Positions 3,576 to 4,085 of a stretch of DNA of 6,364 nt are shown here, in pieces; position 1 is the first letter of the stretch, and every line of letters begins with the position of its first letter. Location of the stretch: IMG/VR virus record IMGVR_UViG_2537561713_000009; one strand, 5' to 3'. The DNA comes from a virus (Duplodnaviria; Heunggongvirae; Uroviricota; Caudoviricetes). The position numbers and the translations under genes were made by a program. Under the pieces are notes generated by a model. The model saw nothing but the letters and a program-made list of their open reading frames with translations. It had not been told where the DNA came from and did no database searches.

Positions 3576-4085
3576 ATGAGTAATGACAAAAAATTGACAC
3601 TGAGCGTTTACGAAAACAGTCCGCACATCTGGCGTGGCGGTTTATCTGATGTGGAGCTGGCAGAGTGGTTGATACATAAAGCTAATGCGCTGCTCTGGCG
3701 TTTGTCAGCCAGAGAACAGCGCAAGGAAACCAGAATAAAGCTGGCTGATGCAGAAGCGTGTGCCGGGCTTATTGAGGATTATACAAATCTTGGTATTTCT
3801 TCAGCAGAGAGTGATCCCATTCAGCCTCTGAGCAGGGAGTCAATCCAGCACGCTGGTTGTATGGCACATCTTGTAACTGCTCGTCAACATGAGGTGGGTA
3901 TTGGATCACTTCCGGCGGGATATTCGCTGATTCCAGAGCTGGTTGAAGCAAGAAAATCAGTTCAGAAAAAGAGAGATGACGCACTTCAATTATTGAGAGA
4001 GCACTATGGCGCGATACCAGAATGCGAACAGCGTCGATACCCTGAAGGTTATGAATGGATGCAGTCTCTTTTTGAAGTTCGCTAA
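3576..4085 (+). CDS. Hypothetical protein (169 aa), no recognised family
   Basis: Track ORF 3525..4085 begins at a GTG inside the previous gene. The ATG at 3576, 14 nt after the YdaT-like stop, is the more plausible start, though its SD is weak. Same orientation as the flanking operon. Confidence 0.45.
   Translation: MSNDKKLTLSVYENSPHIWRGGLSDVELAEWLIHKANALLWRLSAREQRKETRIKLADAEACAGLIEDYTNLGISSAESDPIQPLSRESIQHAGCMAHLVTARQHEVGIGSLPAGYSLIPELVEARKSVQKKRDDALQLLREHYGAIPECEQRRYPEGYEWMQSLFEVR

Follow-up and report, generated by a model that had tools for sequence, protein, structure and literature searches.

It is disputed whether bacteria and their phages truly possess, and maintain, long antisense overlaps of protein-coding genes. 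The question of which strand is read as protein, or whether both are, is raised by a locus between a YdaT-like gene and a replication initiator gene in the virus record IMGVR_UViG_2537561713_000009 (Caudoviricetes). The stretch analysed as a whole, hereafter the window, comprises 6,364 nucleotides (nt), and the region of interest in it is 100% identical to chromosomes of Escherichia coli O157:H7. A preliminary description of the window, made from the letters alone, placed here a plus-strand open reading frame (ORF) at 3576-4085, overlapped by an antisense ORF at 3769..4260 and followed by 217 bp (4086-4302) before the initiator gene at 4303, and these coordinates all hold. Its advice that the coding strand be verified was well founded; the antisense ORF is a conserved gene and the sole one annotated here by RefSeq. 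The analysis indicates that positions 3576-4297 probably constitute a self-contained prophage cassette made up of two convergent, conserved genes that are expressed in opposite states of the prophage. The parts of the cassette are as follows.

3576-4085, plus strand: plus ORF of 169 amino acids (aa), phrog_8304, from ATG 3576 to TAA 4083-4085.
3576-3768, plus strand: plus-only 5' part, 64 codons, coding in the plus frame, with the motif SPHIWxGGLxxxELAxWLxxKANA.
3769-4085, both strands: antisense overlap of the two 3' halves, 317 nt.
3769-4224, minus strand: minus ORF of 151 aa, ECs1072 family (NF033230; WP_000273724.1; EDL933_RS32100).
4086-4224, minus strand: minus-only 5' part, 46 codons, the first third of the gene, lying within the 217-bp interval, with the motif PDYRAWLRAExYLRLD.
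4217-4297: conserved block of leader and promoter, which bounds the cassette on the right.

As the two genes share about 300 bases on opposite strands, annotation pipelines keep only one of them. The resulting loss of annotation is systematic: RefSeq, which annotates no plus ORF in enterohaemorrhagic E. coli (EHEC), retains the minus gene only, PHROGs lists both as unrelated unknowns, with a full-length family that holds the plus ORF, and the preliminary description proposed the plus ORF only. The 217 bp that the latter regarded as a gap are in fact occupied by the 5' coding region of the minus gene, its conserved ribosome-binding site and a mapped promoter.

Within the antisense ORF, which spans 3769..4260, the conserved start codon is ATG 4224, giving a protein of 151 aa that RefSeq/PGAP names 'ECs1072 family phage-associated protein' in hundreds of genomes. 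The NF033230 model matches this protein at positions 3-141 of its 142 positions with 105.3 bits (curated cut-off 70; E 2.7e-30), but contributes a name only (hypothetical equivalog). The phrog_5286 profile reaches only E 0.02 against the window protein, with no match at 0.01 in a second scan, while 13 of the 19 aligned family members match it (best E 6.8e-19). In the literature, nothing was found on ECs1072, WP_000273724 or NF033230 beyond one microarray table. An AlphaFold (AF2) model based on a 12-sequence alignment predicts an all-alpha protein of eight helices, with a predicted local distance difference test score (pLDDT) of 87.5 and a predicted template-modelling score of 0.84. No structural or sequence relatives of the minus protein were found in the PDB or BFVD, and a PDB profile search returned no significant match.

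The plus ORF is separated by 13 nt from the stop codon of the YdaT-like gene (TAA 3560-3562), its ATG starting at the 14th base after that stop. The phrog_8304 profile covers residues 1-169 of its 169 residues (398.8 bits, E 4.2e-120), and a profile search of 1.84 billion representatives yielded 23 clusters at 50% identity, with lengths mostly of 136-197 aa. No model in Pfam, NCBIfam or PADLOC matches the plus ORF, in agreement with the preliminary description, which had recognized no domain in it. In a bulk listing of antisense ORFs that have RefSeq hits (Table S12, bioRxiv 10.1101/2020.11.18.388249), a single line corresponds to the embedded part of the plus ORF. No Pfam domain was found in any member of either family, and neither protein matches a PADLOC or Pfam model of a known toxin, antitoxin or defence protein. 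A type II toxin-antitoxin pair or a known defence system was considered and rejected, as no model matches and the genes are convergent rather than co-directional.

The DNA of about 50 distinct copies of the cassette was compared, and in ~18 diverged Enterobacterales prophage lineages both ORFs are present together. In searches with either protein, relatives at about 50% identity keep their length (168-169 aa for the plus protein and 151-154 aa for the minus protein), and at every diverged locus found through either protein, down to ~30-35% protein identity, the partner lies antisense in the same convergent geometry. The stop-to-stop overlap, 317 nt in the window, is 251-317 nt elsewhere and 386 nt in two frameshifted copies (L076/L077). 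Hosts of the minus family include Escherichia, Salmonella, several Klebsiella species, Serratia, Enterobacter, Raoultella and Yokenella. The surroundings of the pair differ. It is found between a CI-like repressor and a Cro-like gene (or cro/ydaT) on one side and replication genes on the other, in the integrase-Cox-type early regions of Salmonella prophages and, in one lineage (L082), between the integrase region and the repressor, where the plus ORF is co-oriented with the repressor. These differing surroundings indicate that the unit of roughly 720 bp is a mobile cassette. The earlier suggestion of an extra gene in a variable slot is borne out by its presence in 457 of 5426 complete E. coli genomes, compared with 3080 that carry YdaT-like 3' ends. 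A tblastn search of 50,697 phage records with both proteins gave no match, so that the cassette is known only from prophages and metagenomic contigs, and scans of GTDB representative genomes with either alignment gave no confirmed relatives.

The coding capacity of each part was assessed by counting substitutions at codon positions 1/2/3 in phylogenetically independent sister pairs, six of which were close. In the plus-only part the plus frame gave 12/11/42 in close (p 6e-7), 77/72/132 in medium (p 7e-6) and 48/41/75 in far pairs; in the minus-only part the minus frame gave 11/10/27, 55/31/90 and 50/27/93, respectively. Such third-position bias, each part in its own frame, implies that both non-overlapping 5' parts are protein-coding. 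A codon-usage score computed for the six frames of the window alone agrees, the plus frame being best in the plus-only part and the minus frame in the minus-only part. It is scarcely credible, then, that the plus ORF is the sole gene, as the preliminary description assumed by default, with the minus ORF as its shadow. The plus ORF does have a full-length PHROGs family and the orientation of the surrounding operon, but the minus ORF is intact in all of the diverged lineages and, besides the coding signature of its unique part, has a confidently predicted fold, a conserved AGGAGG-N6-ATG, a mapped transcription start and an NF033230 score above the cut-off.

The converse view, implicit in RefSeq, takes the minus ORF as the sole gene and the plus ORF as a non-functional shadow. 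It is consistent with annotation of the minus ORF alone by PGAP, with dominance of the minus frame in the overlap and with a plus ORF that is frameshifted or absent in three lineages. It is nevertheless very improbable, given the third-position bias of the 193 plus-only nt, which moreover encode the best-conserved peptide of the plus family behind a conserved start codon preceded by G-rich Shine-Dalgarno-like sequences, and given the behaviour of the plus frame in the overlap, which is free of stops in 18 lineages and for which a lineage lacking the 5' part of the plus gene (L084) provides a natural negative control.

In the overlap, the first codon positions of the two frames face each other, and the second position of either frame lies opposite the third position of its partner. 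Counted in the minus frame, substitutions there are flat in close pairs (33/36/39) and number 97/96/169 in medium and 133/120/174 in far pairs; in medium pairs the minus frame is the main constraint. The overlap-aware ratio of nonsynonymous to synonymous substitution rates (dN/dS) of the minus frame is 0.3-0.6 and significant at every kappa tried, while deep pairwise values of the ratio in the overlap were saturated and uninformative. By codon usage the minus frame ranks first and the plus frame second, both well above the other four, and the amino-acid identity of the minus frame is alike in the overlap and in the minus-only region (0.628 and 0.611). The minus frame is thus the primary coding frame of the overlap. 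The comparison of periodicity and codon usage that had been proposed as a check therefore came out divided: the plus frame is the best in the 5' part, but the minus frame is better in the 317-nt overlap and, as superior coding statistics on the minus strand were to count against the plus ORF, that part of it is the weaker gene.

The plus frame is nonetheless kept open across the overlap. When the synonymous codons of the minus protein of each lineage were resampled with the codon usage of the non-overlapping parts, 1.1-4.9 plus-frame stops were expected per lineage, compared with none in 18 of 18 lineages (probability of no stop 0.0003-0.25 per lineage); the reverse resampling gave probabilities of 0.004-0.056 for an open minus frame. 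Two controls behave neutrally, as L084 has four plus-frame stops, equal to the neutral expectation, and the minus-only third of the minus gene contains plus-phase stops at normal frequency. Amino-acid identity in the plus frame is 0.496 across the overlap, compared with 0.349 for the same-phase frame in the minus-only control region. The divergence of minus synonymous classes is 0.61-0.70 in pairs with L084 and 0.31-0.40 in most pairs in which both members keep the plus ORF (0.50 for the distant L036). Being stop-free in 18 lineages and third-position-biased in its unique part, the plus ORF is more than a chance reading frame. These sequence comparisons make it likely that selection keeps the plus frame translated through the overlap, with a loosely constrained sequence there, which is consistent with a poorly structured tail.

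The expression of the minus gene can be followed in published Cappable-seq data for strain EDL933 under eight uninduced conditions (Tables S6 and S7 of PMC10469882), with window positions corresponding to EDL933 coordinates minus 1,252,922. The signals that bear on it are listed below.

4231-4237, minus strand: Shine-Dalgarno sequence GAGGAGG, 6 nt before ATG 4224.
4263-4291, minus strand: promoter P(-), with -10 TATAAT at 4268-4263, a 17-nt spacer at 4285-4269 and a weak -35 CTGGTG at 4291-4286.
4255, minus strand: main start of the minus gene (EDL933 1257177), 7 nt after TATAAT, in 6/8 conditions, with relative read scores of 19-52.
3851, minus strand: internal start (EDL933 1256773), in 8/8 conditions, stronger in stationary phase, with TTGACG-18-CATACA upstream.
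4388, minus strand: antisense start within the initiator gene (EDL933 1257310), in 6/8 conditions.

A sigma-70 promoter thus belongs to the minus gene itself and is active in EHEC lysogens without induction. A consensus promoter scan of 3300-4500 found no promoter; it missed P(-) because the -35 element is weak, and the mapped start shows that the promoter exists. In most lineages the -35 reads TTGGTG and, among 20 lineages, the T and A of the -10 are invariant and its last T nearly so. Upstream of the minus ORF, AGGAGGTTCGAC-ATG or a close variant occurs in all lineages examined. For comparison, the start of the neighbouring repressor scores 360-650 and that of ydaS 0-22. In a microarray study of the Sakai lysogen, the ECs1072 probe was expressed in exponential phase and dropped more than fourfold at entry into stationary phase. 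The minus ORF thereby combines two features of a moron, its own lysogen-active promoter and variable presence among prophages; no terminator was established for it.

Antisense control of the cII-oop/PRE type operates in the immunity regions of lambdoid phages, oop being an RNA of 77 nt, and the products of P(-) and of the start at 3851 might likewise be mainly regulatory RNAs directed against the early operon (the plus ORF and ydaT), with coding by the minus strand secondary. The leftward starts at 4255 and 3851 do lie between the CII-like gene and the replication gene, the position of pO in lambda, and the internal start is used in 8/8 conditions. As the principal explanation this is nevertheless improbable, because purifying selection acts on the entire minus protein, whose thirteen invariant residues are spread from end to end and whose fold is predicted with confidence, and because in L082 the cassette lies elsewhere, with its plus ORF co-oriented with the repressor. 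A dual role of the minus strand, as protein and antisense RNA, is possible. RNA from the 3851 start, which recalls oop, would lie antisense to the 5' half of the plus ORF and perhaps to ydaT as well. The resemblance to lambda thus consists of a leftward promoter between the CII equivalent and the replication genes and an RNA antisense to the early rightward genes; the difference is that the leftward transcript of the cassette encodes a conserved protein of 151 aa with a predicted fold and that the cassette is also found outside this slot.

The plus gene, on the other hand, has no mapped promoter and sits in the early rightward operon behind ydaS and ydaT, whose Cro-like and CII-like products have been described as the equivalents of Cro and CII (PMC8630535; PMC9986795). 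It would be read from the ydaS promoter, and its product would appear only on derepression of the early lytic operon. Transcription running rightward would then meet P(-) head-on and yield an RNA fully complementary to the minus mRNA. In such an arrangement the minus protein would be made in the lysogen and the plus protein during lytic growth, and head-on transcription together with complementary RNAs suggests that the two products are expressed in opposite, mutually exclusive states. Their physical overlap would keep the pair linked when the cassette moves.

A number of observations weigh against a cassette of two genes expressed in this way. Counted in the plus frame, the medium pairs give 74/120/82 in the overlap, with position 2 the most variable. 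The overlap-aware dN/dS of the plus frame is 0.5 at kappa 1 and rises to a non-significant 0.8-1.0 at kappa 3-4.4, the observed ratio of transitions to transversions being 96:44. The predicted structure of the plus protein is poor (pLDDT 56), with one long helix of moderate confidence (residues 25-72) and low confidence for the part encoded by the overlap. Either gene may also occur without the other in intact form: the minus gene stands alone in L084/85, where the plus ORF is absent; in L077(/L154) and L082/83 the minus ORF is intact and a frameshift interrupts the plus ORF, although the downstream plus frame is still open; and in the near-identical E. coli viral genomes L031 and L032 the minus ORF carries nonsense mutations and the plus ORF is intact. 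As to expression, no plus-strand start in ydaT or the cassette is among those listed in the tables of PMC10469882, a limited negative, and the literature yielded no ribosome-profiling or proteomic record for either ORF, including after induction. Mutual antagonism by convergent transcription, finally, is inferred from geometry only.

Some of these observations fit another explanation, that the function of the plus protein resides in its N-terminal 65-95 residues alone and the remainder is a tolerated read-through tail into the minus gene, which may be kept open because, for example, ribosomes retained on the early-operon mRNA would avoid Rho-dependent polarity on the replication genes. A plus-frame dN/dS of about 0.8-1.0 at realistic kappa and low pLDDT after residue 72 are what such a tail would show, as are the variable C-terminal end of the plus protein, which has three different stop positions, and the frameshifted 83-aa version that is called as a gene in L082. 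The overlap, however, contains conserved plus-frame motifs (YAxLGxSxxESDPIxPLSxEAIQ and PxGYSxLPDLxEE) in 21 sequences down to 25% identity, its plus-frame identity exceeds that of the same-phase control and, in a remote clade, the plus stop position and an acidic C-terminus are conserved. A read-through tail is accordingly a possible but not a likely account, and a cassette of two genes remains the preferred reading.

What the two proteins do can only be approached by analogy. In the Pseudomonas phage Fc02, olg1 and gene 10 have both been reported to give superinfection exclusion (PMC9936078). There, too, an early lytic gene overlaps a lysogen-transcribed gene in antisense within a lysis-lysogeny region (PMC9936078). 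Host and phage type differ, family scans found no sequence relationship and the likeness in exclusion is one of analogy. A logic of self-immunity is known from other prophages. It is from this analogy and this logic that one might speculate that the cassette pairs a lysogen-expressed accessory protein, exclusion or host-modifying, with an early lytic counter-gene, although such a role is rather unlikely to prove correct. The functions put forward for the plus ORF in the preliminary description, regulation or anti-defence, are candidate assignments. Equally tentative is the broader idea of an ancient two-protein switch conserved across Enterobacterales, in which a lysogen effector (the minus protein) and a lytic antidote or off-switch, comprising the plus protein and the antisense mRNA, would share the same DNA and so be inseparable by recombination and never co-expressed.

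The leader of the minus gene contains two further elements.

4270-4285: box X, minus strand CCGAACCTTCCTCCGG, in the promoter spacer, complementary to box Y.
4225-4240: box Y, minus strand CCAGAGGAGGTTCGAC, covering the Shine-Dalgarno sequence, able to pair with box X in an RNA that holds both.

Their complementarity is found in nearly all lineages, and single-sequence folds of either strand have z-scores of -2.6 to -3.4; for the leader, RNAalifold predicted only a pair of short local hairpins, and the long pairing of X with Y showed no covariation. The location of box X in the promoter spacer, and therefore upstream of the mapped start, is the reason why no RNA switch is claimed. Only RNAs initiated further upstream, such as those from 4388, would have their ribosome-binding site masked by the pairing, which in the rightward mRNA would also produce a stem-loop immediately ahead of the next gene. 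Box X was further considered as a palindromic operator (CCGAA-N6-TTCGG), a model that was rejected, as the window holds no second good copy.

The 81-nt block at 4217-4297 is 92.7% identical in the Actinobacillus phage vB_Apl-pPE4 (PP818812.1; L086 2375-3088). Between ydaT and a primosomal gene, this phage has a convergent overlapping pair, gp12 of 137 aa and gp13 of 151 aa, with an overlap of 236 nt. The block there heads a minus ORF whose protein is unrelated to that of the window (hhalign E 0.34), while the plus protein of the phage shows only marginal similarity, at its N-terminus (E 4e-4). Different cargo genes may thus exchange this promoter block as a common head.

The window as a whole has the gene content of a lambdoid cryptic prophage: an exonuclease, dicB, a RelE/ParE-RelB-regulator module, YdaS, YdaT, the initiator and a DnaC-like loader. 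Its EDL933 counterpart lies at 1.2556-1.2591 Mb and adjoins an integrase located after yccA. A homologue of paaR2-paaA2-parE2 is known on CP-933M, and we infer, short of proof, that the prophage of the window is CP-933M. Its further features include the following.

3130-3147, ydaS/ydaT junction: exact copy of the published YdaT operator OM, TTGATTCATGAAAATCAA.
1865-2772, minus strand: helix-turn-helix regulator (133 aa), RelB-like antitoxin (63 aa) and RelE/ParE toxin (95 aa).
141-192, minus strand: DicF small RNA gene (Rfam RF00039, 76.9 bits).

A second site resembling the YdaT operator, TTGAAGTTCGCTAATCAA at 4072-4089 across the stop codon of the plus ORF, has two mismatches, is within chance expectation and was rejected. 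The order of the genes at 1865-2772 is that described for paaR-paaA-parE in O157:H7 cryptic prophages. The mapped start of the repressor coincides with its start codon, and its mRNA is therefore leaderless. Another minus-strand start, used in 8/8 conditions, lies at 3096 (EDL933 1256018) within the 3' end of the ydaS-like gene, the place expected for the published PRE-type promoter of the repressor operon. In a scan of the window with Rfam covariance models DicF was the sole match, with none in the leader or the overlap. For the initiator, the start used by RefSeq, ATG 4303, is also the one favoured by the homologues; another in-frame ATG at 4192 would give 400 rather than 363 aa, with an extension (4192-4302) that overlaps the start and promoter of the minus gene. 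A low-complexity linker, QEQEQEQEKEQEQ, is present in the initiator. Downstream of the window, in strain PV15-279 (L001 9380-12243), ISEc8 of the IS66 family splits a DUF977 gene.

Both families of the cassette are present in databases as unknowns, no record of NF033230 or phrog_5286 notes an overlap with a second conserved gene and no description of the pair was found in the literature. To our knowledge, most reported antisense overlaps involve young ORFs embedded in a single annotated gene, and those of EHEC are mostly young and taxonomically narrow. The EHEC cases include asa, pop, ano, laoB and others (PMC6294744; PMC7103648; PMC5960689; PMC5810103). Several of them are described as ORFs that lie embedded within an annotated gene, and an origin by overprinting is reported for laoB; they resemble the present case in the organism and in pipelines that likewise discard one of two overlapping ORFs. 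What sets the cassette apart is that its overlap is convergent, 3' end to 3' end, and that it joins two separate families, each of which has a non-overlapping domain of its own and which are conserved together in Enterobacterales down to ~30% identity.

Two families are locked in the same convergent overlap of 250-317 nt across several genera, and natural controls are provided by a lineage that lacks the plus gene and by copies with frameshifts or nonsense mutations. Together with the promoter mapped in EDL933, these make dual coding directly testable with mutants that are silent in one frame. If the two-protein switch is true, the cassette would be among the best comparative cases for selection maintaining long antisense coding overlaps. 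If it acts as an exclusion/antidote pair or as a switch between lysogeny and lysis, it would represent a new accessory module of EHEC and Salmonella prophages, of interest to those who work on overlapping genes and on the accessory modules of prophages.

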